From an uncultured archaeon (GTDB lineage Archaea; Asgardarchaeota; Thorarchaeia; Thorarchaeales; Thorarchaeaceae): a stretch of 64,000 bases of DNA. The position numbers were made by a program, and so were the translations under genes. Positions within the stretch are counted from its first letter, which is position 1; the number at the start of each line of letters is the position of its first letter. Positions 52,541 to 61,326 of the stretch are shown here, in pieces. The stretch is taken from positions 16,863 through 80,862 of the forward strand of contig CAZSWP010000014.1 in NCBI GenBank assembly GCA_964610875.1. Direction: 5' to 3'. Below the pieces are notes generated by a model that saw nothing but the letters and a program-made list of their open reading frames with translations, made no database searches and had not been told where the DNA came from.

Positions 52541-52957
52541 CTAGGATACTTTCCTGAGAACTACCTTTGAAACGCCTGGGATTTTCTGCAGGCTTTCTTC
52601 AAGTTCTTTCAGAGTGATTACTAATTGGTCAGGTACGAAATAGCACTCGTAATAGCACTTCTCGCCTCTAAGGCATACGCCGGTTGTGAATATGATGTCG
52701 CTTAATTTGGCATCATTGAATGAGAAGTTAAGTTGCTTGAGGAAATTACGTGAAAGATCACTAATCTCAATTCTCAGAAGATAGATGTCATCTGAGGCAA
52801 CTGGGAATATTTTCATCACACGGTCTTTATGGTGAAGAACTGTCAAGGCAGCTTTCTCCTTAATGTCCGCTACGAATTCAGCCGGGAACTCCACTGGCTT
52901 TCCCGGGGTTAAATGAAGTATGATTGCTGAGGTCGCACCCTCTCTGTCCGGTACCAT
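52541..52957 (-). CDS. Hypothetical protein with ACT-like C-terminal half
   Basis: 138 aa; beta-alpha pattern ending LEESLQKIPGVSKV; CLRGEKCYYEC. Confidence 0.65.
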   Translation of the reverse strand: MVPDREGATSAIILHLTPGKPVEFPAEFVADIKEKAALTVLHHKDRVMKIFPVASDDIYLLRIEISDLSRNFLKQLNFSFNDAKLSDIIFTTGVCLRGEKCYYECYFVPDQLVITLKELEESLQKIPGVSKVVLRKVS

Positions 52958-53141: not shown

Positions 53142-53858
53142 TTGAGAGATTTGCATCCTAGAATTTTACAGCTTGTTGGAATTGTTTTGCTTGTGGTTTG
53201 TGCAGCAATGACTTGGATCGTATATGATAGCACATTAGCAGTAGGTGGTGACCCATCTATACTACTAACCTCAGGAATTGTGGCTTGGGGCATTCTTGCA
53301 CTACCTGAATTGATAATTGGTCTGTGGTTACTCGCAAAAGGTACACGTGAAGCAAGGATTGGAGACGTATCTGGGAATTTGATAAAGCTCGTGCAAGAAG
53401 AAGGTCGTATCAGTGTGGATGCAGCTGCCAAAAAACTAGGTGCAGAACCAGAAGATGTTGTAGATGCAGCTGAAAAATTAGAGCGAAAACGTTTACCCTT
53501 GGTCTATGTTGATAGGCGCAGAAATGAGATAGTCAGTCCGAGAGCAGTAGAACTCAAGGAGAGTATTCTCCATCTTATGTTCGCACAGAGAAGAATGAAG
53601 TTCAGTCAAATTGCTGAGGTAACTGAAGCTACTGAGGAGCAGATTATTGAAGCTCTTAAAGAACTGTCCAAAGAAGGTAAATTCCGTGGTGTTATAGATG
53701 AGAATTCCAGAGTTATTTATACAAAAGAAGCAGTAAGTCAGATGCCCAAAGCTGTCACCGCCTGTCCTAACTGTGGTGGAAAACTTCCGAATCCCATCCT
53801 ACCTGGGGAAGAAGAAAACTGCCCGTACTGTGGTCATGTGATTACTAACAAATTGTGA
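53142..53858 (+). CDS. Membrane protein: 2 TM, two winged-helix (PCI-like) domains, double zinc ribbon
   Basis: Two TMs; GRISVDAAAKKLG; MKFSQIAE...LSKEGKFRGVIDE; CPNCGG...CPYCG. Confidence 0.75.
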   Translation: MRDLHPRILQLVGIVLLVVCAAMTWIVYDSTLAVGGDPSILLTSGIVAWGILALPELIIGLWLLAKGTREARIGDVSGNLIKLVQEEGRISVDAAAKKLGAEPEDVVDAAEKLERKRLPLVYVDRRRNEIVSPRAVELKESILHLMFAQRRMKFSQIAEVTEATEEQIIEALKELSKEGKFRGVIDENSRVIYTKEAVSQMPKAVTACPNCGGKLPNPILPGEEENCPYCGHVITNKL

Positions 53859-55104: not shown

Positions 55105-55830
55105 TTATTCATGAATTTCTGAATCTGGACCCTCAATGGATACTTGTGCACTATTCAAATCAGCTTCAACTAATTTCTCTACAAACTCAGGTTTTGCACA
55201 TCTACGCCCATTCGTGATTAGATTCATCCGGAGACCTCGCTCTCTACCATAAGCTATCAGTTCAAAGAGGTCATCTCGTAAGGTCGGCTCTCCACCGGTA
55301 AAGGAGAGACTTGGTACATGTGCATCATCAACGAGAATGTCAATCACTCGTTTAATATCCTCCGTACTCATCTCGCCGGACTCTCTATGAGGTGAGTATG
55401 CATAACAAAAACGACATGCATTGTTGCATCTGTAAGTGACTGCTATCTCACTCAAAACGGGATATCTAATCTCCCCCTCTCCGAAAGGGAGTATTTTTGC
55501 TGTTCTATAAGTGTAAATATTTTGATTACCTGATATCATATTCTGCAGGTCAAAGACGAATGCTGCAAGGTCATTCAATACCTTTTGTTGTGCAACGCTA
55601 TGATTTGTTTCAAAGAATTCTGTTACTTCTTGAGGTGATTTTCCATCAAGTAACATTTGTAGCATCATTTGTGCAGTCTGGTTCAGATGCATTACCTTGT
55701 TTGGTCTGAGGATTAGTAGATTGTCTTCTGGTCTTACGAAGAAGTAATCCTTCACCTCACTCATGAATCTCTCTACCCAGCTGAGATCCTCAATGGTATA
55801 GTTGTATACTGGTTTCGTAATTCGAACCAC
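55105..55830 (-). pseudogene. PqqD/RRE-fused radical SAM enzyme, 3'-truncated
   Basis: N-terminal RRE-like LNQTAQMMLQMLLDG..EV..F...V..DL; CNNACRFC, FTGGEPTL, ITNG. The ORF stops at QVSIEGPDSEIHE, mid-barrel, and I saw no continuation in the 95-bp gap before the next gene. Confidence 0.78.
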
Positions 55831-55912
55831 CCATGGTAATTGAGATTTTGCAAGTCATGTTGTCATTTCATACATCTTAAGTGCTTAGATTAGAAACTCC
55901 TACCGAAGAATC

Positions 55913-56497
55913 ATGTGGTACCATGATTTGGTGAAGTCAATGATAATCTCAGGTGACAGAGTGCAGCTTCGCAATGAACCACGACAATCAGACTATGAAA
56001 ATATGTTACGATGGTGGGAATTAGATGAATGGCAGTATTATGATGAACCTGACGCAATTGTTGATAGGTCCAAATTACCATCTTATGAAACTTGGTACAA
56101 AAAGATGATGAATAGGGATGGGAGAAGCTGGCGTTGGCAAATAGATACAGAAGATGGTCAACACATTGGATGGGTCATATATTACGAGTACGACCAGGAT
56201 GACAAAACTGCTTTTGTTGGCATCGATATTCCTGAACCTGAGAATTGGGGAAAGGGACTAGGAACTGAAGCTCTCAGTCTATTGATAGACCACCTCTTTG
56301 AGTATCTTGATTTAATAGAGATTAGAACTGCAACATGGACTGGTAATGGGCGCATGATTCGGTGTGCTGAGAAGTGTGGTTTTCAAAGATACTTAGTGAT
56401 GCCACATAGAAGTCCGCTATCAGTACGCGGAGAACCTCTAGAACGAATCGTCTTTTTTCAATCAAAAGATGAGTGGAGAGAAAATAAGCGTAGTTGA
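55913..56497 (+). CDS. GNAT acetyltransferase (RimJ/RimL-like)
   Basis: HIGWV, VGIDI, WGKGLGTEAL, TWTGNGRMIRCAEKCGF. Confidence 0.9.
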   Translation: MWYHDLVKSMIISGDRVQLRNEPRQSDYENMLRWWELDEWQYYDEPDAIVDRSKLPSYETWYKKMMNRDGRSWRWQIDTEDGQHIGWVIYYEYDQDDKTAFVGIDIPEPENWGKGLGTEALSLLIDHLFEYLDLIEIRTATWTGNGRMIRCAEKCGFQRYLVMPHRSPLSVRGEPLERIVFFQSKDEWRENKRS

Positions 56498-56571
56498 TTT
56501 TATTCTTGTTCCAAATCCTGAAAGGCTTATCAGGTCTTGTGCTACTCATTGCATAACAAAAAGATGAGGAT

Positions 56572-56973
56572 TTGGAGATGAGTACCAACGAGACTAAATT
56601 ACCATATGGAACAATCAAAGATAAGAAATTGATAATGCACTTCAGTGCGTATGATATAGACTTGCCAGTGATTGCTGCAGGAATTAGAGAAAGAATGGAT
56701 GTCCTCAAGGAACTCGATGTTGCCTTTGCAGGTTTTGGAACTGAAGTCCCTGATAAAATGACGGAACAGAGTCCTGCAATGGTCAAGTGTTTCTTCGAAT
56801 ATGTCGGAAAACAAACTGACCCTGTTGTTATACTAAAGAGAGTCTATCATCTAATCTGGGGCGGTATGATTCAGGAGTTTCCTGATATCATTGATTGGGC
56901 TGCTGCAAAATCTGATCTTGCCAATCTGACCTACGCTCAAGCAGATGTGCTACGGGCACGAAAGGGTGATTAA
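56572..56973 (+). CDS. Hypothetical protein
   Basis: 133-aa ORF with SD-like GAGG/GGAG; first gene of a closely packed + strand run. Confidence 0.7.
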   Translation: MEMSTNETKLPYGTIKDKKLIMHFSAYDIDLPVIAAGIRERMDVLKELDVAFAGFGTEVPDKMTEQSPAMVKCFFEYVGKQTDPVVILKRVYHLIWGGMIQEFPDIIDWAAAKSDLANLTYAQADVLRARKGD

Positions 56974-56989
56974 AGGAAGCGCTTTAGCA

Positions 56990-57313
56990 ATGCGTGAAGT
57001 CAGAGTTTCTGAGATTCTTCATGACCTTCTCGAGAGACATGTTAAGAAGACTGAATACGAATCCGTAGAAGCCGCAGTTGATGTAATTCTCAAGTCATAT
57101 TTGATGAAGCATGATACTATTGGAAATATGCACCAGCCATTTTCTACGATTCTTATGTCCTCTGTTGATGATATTAGAGCAGCTCGCAAACTACTGGAAA
57201 CTGTAAACTGGATGAGTCTGCAAAAAGATATCAACAAAACTATTGAGAAAGTGAAGGACATTGAACAGAACCTCTCTCAGCATGCGTATGCTTTGAATGA
57301 AGAGAATAAATGA
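56990..57313 (+). CDS. Ribbon-helix-helix (CopG-like) protein with C-terminal coiled coil
   Basis: MREVRVSEILHDLLERHVKKTEYESVEAAVDVILKSYL beta-alpha-alpha pattern. Confidence 0.6.
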   Translation: MREVRVSEILHDLLERHVKKTEYESVEAAVDVILKSYLMKHDTIGNMHQPFSTILMSSVDDIRAARKLLETVNWMSLQKDINKTIEKVKDIEQNLSQHAYALNEENK

Positions 57314-57329
57314 GCAAGGAGAATTGGAC

Positions 57330-59279
57330 GTGAGAAGTATACGACAAAAACTCTTTGTAATCACATTGATAGTGTTATTATGTTGTCCACTGGCGGTAAA
57401 TTCTACAACTCCCGCTCAAGATAGAGTCGTGAATATAGATAGTGTTCTCGTCGATGTTGTTGTTTTACCGAATGGAAGAATCAATGTTACGTACTGGATG
57501 ACATTTACAGTTGAAAGTGGTTCAATTGGTGGATTTGATCTTCGAGGAATTCAGGAGTCATCAATTTACGATCCTGATCGAGCTTATGCAGAATATGATG
57601 GAGAGCGCTACTCATTAGTGGTGACTGAATATTGGGATGGATATGGTCTTGATTGGACACCTCGAACACAAGAAGGTGAATCTGTTACAATTGTGTTTGG
57701 ATACTTCAGTACAAATCGTGTCATAGAGAAGACAACAGGAACCTTCGAATTAGAGGGCAGCGGTGACACAATCACTGCTGATCTGGGAGTCTTTAATTGG
57801 GCTCCTGTCCAGTGGGAGTTGCCTATTGACTATTCCAATATCCGTGTTATTTATCCTATAGAAATGGAATCTGAATGGATTACATCTGAAGGAGGGATAA
57901 CTCCAGATGGTGCTAACCATGCTGGTTATGTGGTAGACTTCCGTCAACAGATAGAAGAGTCCAATGGAAACACTCGTGACTTCGAGTCAGTTGAACTCAT
58001 TGCATACCCTTCAGATGAGTCTGCATCGCCTAGAATTTTCAGTATCAGTTTCATTGAAAATTCAGTTAATTCTCTTGATCATCTGCGAGTCTTTCACTAT
58101 ACAAACTGGAGTTACTATGAACCCTTTTTGGTGCCTGGAGCGTTGGCAATTAATGCTGAAGATTATGTTAATGCAAATGCAGAAACAGATTTCGATATTT
58201 CACTAGACATAATCAATATTGGAGATGGTGATCTTACCGGTGTCACTGTGAATATGGCCCTTCCAGCAAATCTTACTCTAACACAAGGGTCTACTTCAAC
58301 ATTGGTTGGAACTCTTGTTGGTGGCGAATATTATACAGTCCTATTTTCCTTCATCCCTGCAAACACACCTCAGATTCTTACAATAACGTTTCAGGTTTCC
58401 GCCAATGAATTAAATACATCTGATTATCTGACCTTCAGTGTTGCTGAGCTTGATCCAGTAGAATCTGCATTCTTCGTAAACAACAGTAGGCAGAAAATTG
58501 TAGCTATGATTATGATGTCATGTGTCAAGAAGGGTGCAGTCAGAGTGATATCCACTGATCCATTGAAGTTGACTGATACCGGTGTACGATTTGAAGACCT
58601 AACCTATTATGAAGAGATGTTCATTGAAGCGATTGTTGATGACCAACTAGATGAGGAACTCGTTGATCAGATGATTGAAGAACTAGCTGAACGGGTTCAA
58701 GAAAAATCATGGAATGTTGATTTTGAAGCAACAAAGGAGCATCATGATCGAATGGTTGACGGTGCTTGGGACGAACTTAATGATCAACCTACTCTCAATA
58801 CTCGTACATTATACTACTTCGATAGTCATTACCATAACTCTTGGGCTTGGTACTGGTTGTATATGCATCCACGACACGATAGATATCTCGAAGATGCATT
58901 CGAATCTTCTGGACCTGCAATCGCACCTCCAAAGATTCCTGATTGGTTTAATGGTCTTGCTGAAGCAACTGGTAATGCCATTGATACGACCGGTCGTGTG
59001 ATTGGGGATGTTGCGGCTACAACAGGTCAAATAGTATCTAATGTTACGAGTACCATCGGGAAAGTCGTAGAGAATGTTGGGAGCGTGATAACTGCCCCAT
59101 TGAAGCCAATCATCGAAGGCACAAGTCGTTGTGTATCGCACGATGCTTGTCATAGTGCTTGCGTTTCGCATGACGCCTGTCATAGTGCCTGCCACTCAGC
59201 ATGCCATAGTGCTTGTGTATGCCATTCTGCATGTCACAGTGCTTGTCATAGTGCCTGTGTGTCAGGAGGGTTCCGCTAA
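57330..59279 (+). CDS. Exported DUF2207-like protein with Ig-like domain and C-terminal Cys/His-rich (CHSA)n tail
   Basis: GTG start after AGGAG; signal peptide; V.V.PNG.I.VTY and FNWAPVQW; DUF11/CARDB-like NIGDGDLTGVTV; tail CVSHDACHSAC...CVSGGFR. Confidence 0.82.
   Translation: MRSIRQKLFVITLIVLLCCPLAVNSTTPAQDRVVNIDSVLVDVVVLPNGRINVTYWMTFTVESGSIGGFDLRGIQESSIYDPDRAYAEYDGERYSLVVTEYWDGYGLDWTPRTQEGESVTIVFGYFSTNRVIEKTTGTFELEGSGDTITADLGVFNWAPVQWELPIDYSNIRVIYPIEMESEWITSEGGITPDGANHAGYVVDFRQQIEESNGNTRDFESVELIAYPSDESASPRIFSISFIENSVNSLDHLRVFHYTNWSYYEPFLVPGALAINAEDYVNANAETDFDISLDIINIGDGDLTGVTVNMALPANLTLTQGSTSTLVGTLVGGEYYTVLFSFIPANTPQILTITFQVSANELNTSDYLTFSVAELDPVESAFFVNNSRQKIVAMIMMSCVKKGAVRVISTDPLKLTDTGVRFEDLTYYEEMFIEAIVDDQLDEELVDQMIEELAERVQEKSWNVDFEATKEHHDRMVDGAWDELNDQPTLNTRTLYYFDSHYHNSWAWYWLYMHPRHDRYLEDAFESSGPAIAPPKIPDWFNGLAEATGNAIDTTGRVIGDVAATTGQIVSNVTSTIGKVVENVGSVITAPLKPIIEGTSRCVSHDACHSACVSHDACHSACHSACHSACVCHSACHSACHSACVSGGFR
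59130..59276 (+). repeat. 49-aa Cys/His repeat: 11 Cys, 9 His; units CHSA and CVSHDA
   Basis: Direct translation; synonymous codons vary between units (AGT/TCA/TCT, CAT/CAC, TGT/TGC). Confidence 0.95.
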
Positions 59280-60035
59280 ATGCCAAAGATGAAGACCACG
59301 ATCTTTCATCTAAGTGATGTGCACATTGGAGAAAGCGGTGTACTTTTAGAGGATTTCAGAAATATAATCGATAGTATTGAGAAGAAATCTAGAAACTCAG
59401 CATCTCCTATAGTTCTGATTACAGGTGATTTGACTTCAGAGGGTTTAAGAGATGAATTCGAAAATTTCTATTCTGTCATTGAAGGATTGAGCTTGCCGCT
59501 TGTTATAGTACCTGGAAACCATGACGAACGTAACTATGGAACTTCAATATTTGAGGAGCTTTTTGGTGATAGATTCTCTACTTATGAAACAGAACATATA
59601 TCCATGTATGCGGCAGATAGTTCTGAACCTGATAATGATGCGGGTCATGTTGGTAGATCCAAATACCATGAAATTGCTGATTTCTTTCGAACTGCAAAAG
59701 AGAAAGTGAAAATATTCGCGTTGCACCATCATCTTATTCCCGTTCCTCATACTGGAAGAGAACATAATGTCGTTGAGGACGCTGGAGATATGTTGGGTGT
59801 TCTCACTCGTTCCAGATGCTCTATGGTTCTAAACGGGCACCGCCATGTGCCATGGATGTGGCGATTGAATGGGATGATTCTCTATAACACTGGTACTCTC
59901 TTATCCAAAAGAATTCGTGGAGCCCATTCTCAAGCATATACCAGAATAGAAATAGAAGATACGGATGCAATATTCTATCTCCATGAAAAAATTGGGGATG
60001 TGTCAAAGTTTGGAGAAGGTCAGTTGTTAGTATGA
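59280..60035 (+). CDS. Calcineurin-like metallophosphoesterase
   Basis: SDVH, TGDLT, PGNHD, LHHH, NGHRH; ATG directly follows the upstream TAA. Confidence 0.92.
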   Translation: MPKMKTTIFHLSDVHIGESGVLLEDFRNIIDSIEKKSRNSASPIVLITGDLTSEGLRDEFENFYSVIEGLSLPLVIVPGNHDERNYGTSIFEELFGDRFSTYETEHISMYAADSSEPDNDAGHVGRSKYHEIADFFRTAKEKVKIFALHHHLIPVPHTGREHNVVEDAGDMLGVLTRSRCSMVLNGHRHVPWMWRLNGMILYNTGTLLSKRIRGAHSQAYTRIEIEDTDAIFYLHEKIGDVSKFGEGQLLV

Positions 60036-60105
60036 AGAACTGTGGTTTGGCAAATTAGCCGAGTCCGGTAAGTTGATAGTCTGGTTACATTCCTCAGGAA
60101 CTGCC

Positions 60106-61326
60106 ATGAATGCTCTTGAAAGATATGTGATTCTCTCTGGAGAAGTTGGAAATCTAGTCGAAAAAGAAACTGGTGTCAATTTGATTGATGCGTATTTTGG
60201 CCCAGATAATCTTGCTCCAAAGAATCAACAAAAAGACAGACCAAGTAATGACTTAATTCATGAACTTGAAGAACTGAAAGAAAAAATATCTGAAGAAATC
60301 ACAGATAGGATACACGAAACCTATCTTCTTGCAGAGATTGACTCATTCAAGACTGTAGTTCAATGGCTCTCTGGCTCTGAGATGAGTTATTCACATCTTG
60401 TTGAAGCTCTATTTCATATTCCACTCGAGAAGTTCAGTGAGAAGGAAATCGATGTAGTTATAGATACAGTTGAAGATTTGACAAAAGACATCTCTGGGAA
60501 AGATGTTCATGAGCGGGTGATCAATTTTTCAAAAGAAGGAGAGATTCAAGGAGAAGAATTGAGTGATTTGATTGAAAATGTTCTTCAACCGAAGGCGAGA
60601 GAAGTTGGTGAACTTTTCCAAAAACGTATTTTCTCGAAAATGAAGATATCAGTTACAGATAATGGAGTGTTGTATAGTTCAGTCACTGATAAACCTTGGT
60701 CTGGTTATAATTACTATCAAGGTGACTATAAGTCACTCAACGAATTCAATGTTGATCGTCCTATGAACAAAGATAGTCTCTTGGGAGTCATCTATCACGA
60801 GTATGAACATCATGTATCAAATCTGTGGCGGGAGAGAAAATATCGTATTGATGGAAACCTTGATCTCTCAACTGTACCACTTCATACTGGAAGATGTGTT
60901 ATATCTGAAGGCACAGCAGACACAGCAAAAGATTTCCTTGGTGTACGAGAATCAACCCAAAGAGAACGAATATTCGATGCATTATATATCCTACGTCGTA
61001 TGACAAGTATCAACGCAGCAATTATGATGAATCATGAGAAAGAGTCTACAGAAGAGGCAGTTGATTACATGGTTTACAGAGGCCTCAGAACTGAGTCATC
61101 AGCTAAAGGGTCTCTAGGTTTCATTGGTCCAAAGAATAGTGATGGTTCACCTAATATTTGGGCTCCGTACATTATCACTTATTTTATTGGGAGAACTGAG
61201 TTTGTGCTTCCGACATTTGAAAAAGCTAGAAATCAAGATATGATTCCAGAATTTTTCAAAACCATCTATCTCAATCCATATGCAGGCTCAAGTGCTACAT
61301 GGGAAATGGCTTTTGATTGGTTATAG
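60106..61326 (+). CDS. DUF885-like / gluzincin-type zinc metalloprotein
   Basis: IDAYFGP, WSGYNYYQG, IYHEYEHH, ISEGTA, YIITY..G. Confidence 0.65.
   Translation: MNALERYVILSGEVGNLVEKETGVNLIDAYFGPDNLAPKNQQKDRPSNDLIHELEELKEKISEEITDRIHETYLLAEIDSFKTVVQWLSGSEMSYSHLVEALFHIPLEKFSEKEIDVVIDTVEDLTKDISGKDVHERVINFSKEGEIQGEELSDLIENVLQPKAREVGELFQKRIFSKMKISVTDNGVLYSSVTDKPWSGYNYYQGDYKSLNEFNVDRPMNKDSLLGVIYHEYEHHVSNLWRERKYRIDGNLDLSTVPLHTGRCVISEGTADTAKDFLGVRESTQRERIFDALYILRRMTSINAAIMMNHEKESTEEAVDYMVYRGLRTESSAKGSLGFIGPKNSDGSPNIWAPYIITYFIGRTEFVLPTFEKARNQDMIPEFFKTIYLNPYAGSSATWEMAFDWL

Follow-up and report, generated by a model that had tools for sequence, protein, structure and literature searches.

The window analysed here is a 64,000-nucleotide stretch of DNA from an uncultured archaeon of the Thorarchaeaceae (GCA_964610875.1, contig CAZSWP010000014.1, positions 16,863 to 80,862), whose genome assembly comprises 3.75 Mb in 124 contigs and is 95% complete with 5.8% contamination. 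Our subject is the locus at positions 55105 to 61326, where the gene of a radical S-adenosylmethionine (SAM) enzyme with a PqqD/RRE-like domain lies near the gene of a membrane protein that ends in a periodic Cys/His tail. Comparison with orthologous loci identified this locus as a decayed copy of a conserved three-gene cassette, and in intact versions the enzyme probably modifies the tail. The features of the locus are the following (window coordinates).

55105..55830, minus strand: truncated RRE-radical SAM gene, 241 amino acids (aa); Pfam PqqD and Radical_SAM
55913..56497, plus strand: GNAT acetyltransferase gene; Pfam Acetyltransf_3, E 5e-21
56572..56973 (probable start 56578), plus strand: conserved soluble protein of 131-133 aa, no family assignment; recognised by conservation in the cassette
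56945..57313, plus strand: optional small open reading frame (ORF), 122 aa; ribbon-helix-helix-like pattern by eye
57297..59279, plus strand: tail-bearing protein, 660 aa; ORF map, Pfam, alignment and model
58434..58457, plus strand: deletion junction within the tail gene, 68 codons lost in frame; orthologue alignment
59121..59276, plus strand: Cys/His tail, 52 residues with 11 Cys and 10 His
59280..60035, plus strand: metallophosphoesterase; Pfam Metallophos, E 2.6e-13
60073..61326, plus strand: 417-aa protein, recognised by its HEYEH motif (60796-60810)

The ORF map reproduced the ORFs and their order as given in an earlier reading of the letters alone (the original prediction), as well as the 11 Cys of the tail and its GGFR end. 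Within the plus-strand run (56572-61326), neighbouring genes overlap or are separated by at most 37 bp. The radical SAM gene had been placed about 1.5 kb from this run; the distance is indeed 1.47 kb, and the GNAT gene at 55913-56497, which lies in between, had gone unmentioned. The gene proposed to encode a ribbon-helix-helix protein (56945-57313) retains that assignment as a sequence pattern recognised by eye, whereas no Pfam match was found for it; its homologues (32-42% identity) were present in six loci only.

The tail consists of two CVSHDA-CHSA units followed by two blocks of three CHSA repeats and a Cys, which are joined by a single Val, and its C-terminal end is VSGGFR. It is the sole tail of its type in the 3.75-Mb genome, and a genome-wide search found no second tail protein. 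When 400 genomes of the phylum were searched, homologues of the tail protein were present in 61 of the 85 other genomes of the same family, with matches reaching the last residue. Across 30 same-family genomes, 49 of the last 52 positions are invariant, the three variable ones being S/T, S/A and F/Y, and the irregular units vary no more than the regular CHSA ones do. In the same genomes the synonymous codons of the tail are saturated, nearly all of them being used at each position, including both serine codon families. Outside the tail the proteins are only 50-70% identical, and no other part is as well conserved as the tail. In its last repeats, Cys, His and Ala keep their positions without exception in 42 archaeal and bacterial sequences that are elsewhere about 30% identical. 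We rejected a chance low-complexity run because of the 49 invariant positions despite saturated synonymous codons. A slippage-driven simple repeat was rejected as well, since the irregular units are conserved residue by residue, synonymous change is saturated, and Tandem Repeats Finder detected only weak 30-bp and 12-bp periodicity. Conservation at the level of residues combined with saturated synonymous codons indicates that purifying selection acts on the peptide sequence of the tail.

The protein that carries this tail begins with a hydrophobic signal or anchor (nt 57351-57407 in the window), and its extracellular part shows weak similarity to DUF2207_N and CARDB/DUF11. The orthologues are 709-737 aa long, compared to 660 aa in the window. 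Intact orthologues have one transmembrane helix, followed by Lys/Arg residues and a near-invariant motif, Y-x-x-P-E-I-x-I-x-T-x-G. This motif is followed in AlphaFold2 (AF2) models by a confidently modelled winged-helix and helical domain, an amphipathic stretch and the tail. The AF2 confidence is low for the juxtamembrane motif and the tail, as expected of flexible segments, and the tail repeats are drawn as helices at low confidence. Since the Lys/Arg cluster follows the single transmembrane helix, the tail and the C-terminal half of intact orthologues are probably on the cytoplasmic side, which would bring the tail within reach of the radical SAM enzyme. The original prediction had taken the tail to be exported; its position on the Lys/Arg side of the helix speaks against this.

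The description of this protein as DUF2207-like holds as a weak similarity and not as Pfam membership. Its PF09972 score (17 bits) is under the Pfam cut-off (24.4 bits), and among 17 aligned family members two match PF09972 at E < 0.01 and one matches DUF2207_C. The layout is the same as in DUF2207 proteins (PF09972, PF20990), in which an extracellular N-terminal domain is followed by a membrane segment, by a domain in the cytoplasm and by a tail of low complexity. An Atlas shape search with the cytoplasmic domain gave template modelling (TM) scores of 0.50-0.64 to clusters labelled DUF2207 or DUF2207_C, a resemblance at fold level only. No match at E ≤ 0.001 was found for this domain in the PDB, where only weak Vps74/GOLPH3-like rows appeared (E 0.18). 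A hidden Markov model of the cytoplasmic part matched 277 clusters (50% identity, E ≤ 1e-10) among 1.84 billion representatives. One homologue from the ENA (P0001) lacks the tail and ends in LSLIHI at a contig end; we take this ending to be a translated sequencing-adapter remnant, which would make the missing tail an artefact.

The radical SAM gene had been predicted to carry a PqqD/RRE-like domain, and PF05402 indeed matches the window enzyme at aa 40-96 (nt 55543-55713) with 24.4 bits against a cut-off of 23.4. The CX3CX2C motif reads CNNACRFC (aa 135-142, nt 55405-55428), and the Radical_SAM match (E 4e-23) covers positions 3-117 of the 166 in the profile. The prediction was therefore correct as to the RRE and radical SAM parts and not as to an intact enzyme: the window holds half a gene without SPASM, the product of which cannot act here. 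Full-length orthologues (463-491 aa) have PqqD/RRE, Radical_SAM and SPASM domains with a complete radical SAM core; the SPASM score is 21.7-48.3 bits (cut-off 21.5), and the PqqD/RRE score of one of them (L034) is 31.2 bits. None of the NCBIfam models reached its cut-off with the orthologues, generic SPASM families, AhbD, NirJ2, PqqE and HxsC4 among them, having the top scores. For three intact orthologues, the best scores of the curated maturase models were far below their cut-offs: 88 against 850 bits for AlbA (NF012164), 103 against 625 for StsB (NF045574), 78 against 300 for SkfB (TIGR04403) and 89 against 340 for PapB (NF047865). TIGR04463 (rSAM_vs_C_rich, the CrpC family, see below) gave 44 bits for an intact orthologue and 37.9 bits for the window fragment at a cut-off of 525. 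Since no NCBIfam model is matched at its cut-off and TIGR04463 is so far below, the enzyme is placed in an uncurated clade of RRE-radical SAM-SPASM enzymes. The solved structures nearest to an orthologue are PqqE (the best PDB match), GDGT/MA synthase, SkfB and SuiB; among these, PqqE, SkfB and SuiB are peptide-crosslinking enzymes.

In a quick FastTree of the enzymes, rooted on those that accompany Cys-Ala tails and read for its topology alone, the archaeal sequences were basal to one bacterial clade; we make no claim from this tree on the direction of any transfer between bacteria and Thorarchaeota. At two distant Asgard loci (L060 and L063), two radical SAM homologues of the clade are close to a single Cys-Ala-tailed protein, so that the enzyme may have been duplicated in some cassettes.

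The original prediction connected the tail family with this enzyme clade and proposed their genomic linkage as a check. Among the Thorarchaeota loci fetched with 20 kb of context, 19 of 20 have the enzyme near the tail gene. In their layout, the enzyme gene is divergent and lies about 130 bp from the gene of the 133-aa protein, which directly precedes the tail gene. As the whole neighbourhood is syntenic in this group, the linkage there is weak evidence by itself. At distant Asgard loci, 11 of 13 have an adjoining radical SAM homologue, and the remaining two are cut by contig ends. Some of the tails at these loci are CHxA repeats that end in VSGGH, and the others are Cys-Ala repeats that end in GGGR. 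The latter were found beside the enzyme in other Asgard genomes and bear out the CACACA..GGGR tails that the original prediction had mentioned. Full-length alignment showed that both tail classes sit on homologous proteins, and the Cys-Ala tails are devoid of His.

For a wider scan, a pattern search was combined with tblastn, with one genome per species. Of 598 pattern matches, 383 were relatives, and the best 80 of these were analysed, each representing one species. Thirteen of the loci were of Thorarchaeota type, one was on a contig labelled Thermoproteota, and about 65 were bacterial; the bacterial carriers belong to over 15 phyla, among them Aminicenantes, Spirochaetota, Clostridia, Planctomycetota, Gemmatimonadota, Acidobacteriota, Armatimonadota, Bacteroidota and Gammaproteobacteria. 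Since most of the carriers found are bacteria, the His-containing tail is no archaeal variant, contrary to what had been supposed. The same final repeats are present in 80/80, with the end CVSG mostly followed by Gly/Ser, one residue and a final His or Arg. An enzyme homologue was present in 77 of the 80 loci, and two of the three exceptions lie at contig ends. In bacteria the enzyme gene usually starts 3-200 bp downstream of the tail gene on the same strand, and this gap leaves no space for a separate short precursor gene. Within the Thorarchaeota family the tail and enzyme genes are gained and lost together: both are present in about 57 genomes and both absent in about 19, and the nine discordant genomes are mostly represented by fragmentary contigs or by loci at contig ends. 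The linkage of tail and enzyme extends well beyond local synteny, and we judge it decisive because of the distant Asgard and bacterial loci.

In 19 of the 20 Thorarchaeota context loci the 133-aa gene immediately precedes the tail gene, as it does in all 12 loci of Thorarchaeota type from the wider scan. Homologues with 37-42% identity occupy the same position in seven bacterial loci, and on this ground the 133-aa protein is, for part of the family, a third component of the cassette. The AF2 model of this protein (predicted local distance difference test score, pLDDT, 79) shows two long helices in addition to an alpha/beta sandwich. Foldseek returned no match at E ≤ 0.001, and the best VIA-align hit had a Z score of 7.8, which is within the background, with none above Z 8. 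Its weak likeness to secretion chaperones or ACT-like sandwiches was judged unusable.

Compared with this conserved cassette, the window copy is damaged at three places. The enzyme matches residues 6-238 of a 473-aa orthologue without gaps (76% identical) and is then terminated by TAA; it lacks the remainder of the barrel and all of SPASM. Readthrough or an alternative genetic code was rejected, since stops in every frame follow the TAA and there are 96 bp from it to the next gene. A genome search found the C-terminal half with SPASM nowhere in the 95%-complete genome. The second change is the GNAT gene (55913-56497), which fills the divergent intergenic region that is only about 130 bp long in orthologues; it has no counterpart in 20 orthologous loci, and we regard it as an interloper and no part of the system. 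Finally, the tail gene has an in-frame deletion of 68 codons relative to all orthologues, splitting the match at residue 381/382. The deleted codons encode an IPPLIPP stretch, the sole transmembrane helix and the motif Y-x-x-P-E-I-x-I-x-T-x-G; a Val codon is present at both breakpoints, and one hydrophobic segment is left in the window protein. Because half of the barrel, SPASM, the membrane helix and the motif are lost, the proposed tail modification cannot take place in this genome.

No accelerated divergence was detected in the surviving parts of the enzyme and the tail gene, whose ratios to the neighbouring genes are 0.97-1.04. Since these parts are no more diverged than their neighbours, either the lesions are recent or the assembly is wrong. 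We consider it decidedly unlikely that the lesions are artefacts of assembly or binning of a metagenome-assembled genome and that the cassette of the organism is really intact. An assembly of 124 contigs with 5.8% contamination invites such doubt, and both genes have survived undiverged, as if nothing had been broken. However, a single contig, perfectly syntenic in other respects, holds all three changes, and assemblers seldom make clean internal deletions. The deletion in the tail gene is in frame with a shared Val codon at its breakpoints, and the missing half of the enzyme did not turn up elsewhere in the genome.

The genes that follow the tail gene are not shared by the wider family. The metallophosphoesterase, the HExxH protein and an M29 peptidase belong to Thorarchaeota synteny only and are absent from bacterial and distant Asgard cassettes; no cassette-conserved protease or exporter was found. 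The phosphoesterase and the HExxH protein were rejected as core parts because neither occurs outside Thorarchaeota synteny, and the metallophosphoesterase and the 417-aa HEYEH protein are thus probably outside the system. The proposal that the latter releases the tail as a zinc-peptidase-like protein finds no support in these comparisons. No Pfam or NCBIfam family was found for the 417-aa protein. Its nearest Atlas feature clusters are Thorarchaeota hypotheticals and clusters with the name 'putative DUF885' (score 0.96), a hint of a zinc-peptidase-like fold. The best NCBIfam match of the metallophosphoesterase is the anti-phage phosphoesterase model NF053862 (68 bits, cut-off 420), which is probably generic calcineurin-like similarity. 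On the other side of the locus, a 138-aa protein (52541-52957, minus strand) is the most conserved gene of the neighbourhood, with 82-92% identity across genera compared to 45-75% for its neighbours. A 238-aa protein (53142-53858) with N-terminal hydrophobic segments and a C-terminal zinc ribbon retains its synteny across the Thorarchaeota family and has weak winged-helix matches (DDRGK/PCI-like) below the cut-off.

To our knowledge, the known RRE radical SAM/SPASM enzymes nearly all produce small peptides that are secreted. The closest precedent for the cassette described here is CrpC of Methanococcus voltae, an RRE-radical SAM-SPASM enzyme that puts thioethers into the 28.8-kDa Cys-repeat protein CrpA (PMC13692751, 2026). 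In both systems such an enzyme is encoded beside a large protein with a C-terminal cysteine repeat. The CrpC product is likewise a modified protein and not a released peptide, and a small partner, CrpB, assists. The differences are considerable, though. The enzyme here is outside TIGR04463 (44 bits for the orthologue and 38 bits for the fragment at a cut-off of 525). CrpA is soluble with ten 17-residue repeats containing C-x-x-Q/D, whereas the protein here spans the membrane once and has repeats of period 4 (CHSA) or period 2 (Cys-Ala). In addition, the present cassette spans many bacterial phyla as well as Asgard archaea.

In its intact form the cassette encodes three proteins: one small and soluble, one that spans the membrane once and ends in a Cys-repeat tail, and the RRE-radical SAM/SPASM enzyme. 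We propose that the enzyme docks via its RRE on the membrane protein, possibly at the disordered juxtamembrane motif, and then modifies the tail of the full-length protein on the cytoplasmic side. It seems to us quite probable that the tail is the enzyme's substrate. The likeliest chemistry would be hydrogen abstraction from acceptor residues adjoining Cys, resulting in a series of intramolecular thioether crosslinks of the sactionine or ranthionine type, and the product would remain on the membrane protein instead of being released as a peptide. We prefer thioether formation because of the analogy with CrpC/CrpA, QhpD, PapB and CteB, and hold it only tentatively, at somewhat less than an even chance. 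Taken as a whole, the reading that the window carries a decayed copy of a three-gene cassette whose intact versions modify the tail of their own membrane protein, most likely with thioethers, is the one we favour, with a little better than even confidence.

The enzyme might also modify the tail by a non-thioether chemistry such as formylglycine or dehydroalanine formation, C-C crosslinking, epimerisation or methylation. This would fit the absence of any curated maturase family at its cut-off, the AhbD, NirJ2, PqqE and HxsC-type models at the top of the NCBIfam scores, the C-C crosslinker PqqE as the best PDB match, and Cys-Ala tails that lack the usual Asp, Asn and Thr acceptors. We nevertheless regard it as unlikely, as Cys is the invariant repeated residue, and the RRE-SPASM enzymes acting on Cys-repeat substrates (CrpC, QhpD, PapB, CteB), which serve here as analogues, make thioethers, as cited in PMC13692751.

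The tail protein of another genome of the family (G368) is relevant to the question of what the tail does without its enzyme. This single-contig assembly is 77% complete and encodes an intact tail on a 780-aa protein (locus L040, G368:C1, ~1231855-1234200), whose N-terminus is replaced by a different one with multiple hydrophobic segments; the 133-aa gene is absent. No cognate radical SAM gene was found in that genome (best match 32% identity), and the locus has masked stretches. Like the genome studied here, G368 thus keeps a near-perfect tail without an intact enzyme, as would be expected if the tail worked unmodified as a metal- or iron-sulfur-binding segment (e.g. a linear thiolate/imidazole array) and the enzyme had another role, either exchanging clusters or electrons with the tail or acting on another substrate. 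The 11 Cys and 10 His at fixed spacing and the helical repeats of the low-confidence AF2 model could be interpreted in the same way, and CrpA itself is suspected of metal binding (PMC13692751). Yet the homologous Cys-Ala tails have no His, so that His-based chelation cannot be the shared function; the combination of RRE and SPASM is typical of peptide-modifying enzymes; and the near-universal adjacency and the co-loss of the two genes would be left unexplained. We therefore consider an unmodified metal-binding tail improbable and retain modification by the enzyme as the preferred explanation.

Several points nevertheless weigh against tail modification by this enzyme. The tail is kept essentially perfect in this genome and in G368, neither of which has an intact cognate enzyme, and it may function without modification, although a recent loss would be an explanation too. 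The PqqD match is marginal in Thorarchaeota (24-31 bits, cut-off 23.4) and is below the cut-off or absent in other clades. The Cys-Ala tails offer only Ala and Gly as acceptors, and their chemistry may differ from that of the known thioether systems. Furthermore, related genomes are not independent samples, and modification in the intact cassettes is a proposal from sequence and analogy.

Other known systems share individual traits with the cassette. In the quinohemoprotein amine dehydrogenase system, the RRE radical SAM enzyme QhpD also puts Cys thioethers into a working protein subunit, QhpC, as summarised in PMC13692751; QhpC differs in being small and soluble, with Cys-Asp/Glu links at three defined places, and has neither a repeat tail nor a membrane protein. 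The sactipeptide and ranthipeptide systems (AlbA, SkfB, StsB, PapB, CteB/SCIFF) have the same enzyme domain architecture and a Cys-rich core C-terminal to a recognition segment, and SkfB is among the nearest solved structures. They differ in that their substrate is a short cleaved precursor instead of a 660-aa membrane protein (709-737 aa in orthologues) without a conserved protease or exporter, and in that the curated maturase models score far below their cut-offs with the enzyme here. Predicted targets with period-4 cysteine repeats are also represented by TIGR04117 ('Cys-Xaa-Xaa-Xaa repeat radical SAM target protein') and ACGX (TIGR04340), which are short proteins of about 100 aa, unlike the tail protein here. 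TIGR04117 gave 18.1 bits (E 0.002, cut-off 50) with the CHNA-type tail of one Asgard homologue (L052) and no match with the window tail. The ACGX radical SAM model gave 94 bits for a Thorarchaeota orthologue and 109 bits for a distant Asgard one at a cut-off of 400. Our literature search found no paper on the TIGR04117 or ACGX system. Finally, TIGR04222 membrane proteins have a Cys-containing, low-complexity C-terminal tail that is the proposed target of a neighbouring RiPP-type enzyme; this enzyme is an MNIO and not a radical SAM protein, and the tails are Gly/Ser-rich, variable and predicted to be periplasmic, mostly in Actinomycetota (PMC12452194). The tail here, in contrast, is invariant and probably cytoplasmic. 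No published description of this tail and enzyme family was found in the literature. For its kind of system, in which an RRE-radical SAM-SPASM enzyme acts on a Cys-repeat protein, CrpC/CrpA is the one published precedent, from 2026.

The constraint on the tail, which in our judgement is among the strongest for short cross-domain segments, argues for a precise chemical role. In a more speculative vein, and with some doubt on our own part, the cassette might make a protein-borne structure of a new kind, a ladder of enzyme-installed crosslinks on the cytoplasmic tail of a single-pass membrane protein, which Asgard archaea and over 15 bacterial phyla would have in common. Rather than being secreted as a natural product, this ladder would serve as a fixed functional element, perhaps in metal binding or redox reactions, on the inner side of the membrane, and a dedicated chaperone or recognition subunit would be the role of the 133-aa partner. 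If tail modification is true, the cassette would widen the CrpC/CrpA idea so that it takes in an integral membrane protein and a very broad range of taxa, and it is directly testable, since two or three genes suffice for co-expression. The window itself represents a natural 'broken' allele, in which the enzyme, the promoter region, the membrane anchor and the candidate docking motif are damaged while the tail is untouched, and which matters for the question whether the tail can be functional in unmodified form.

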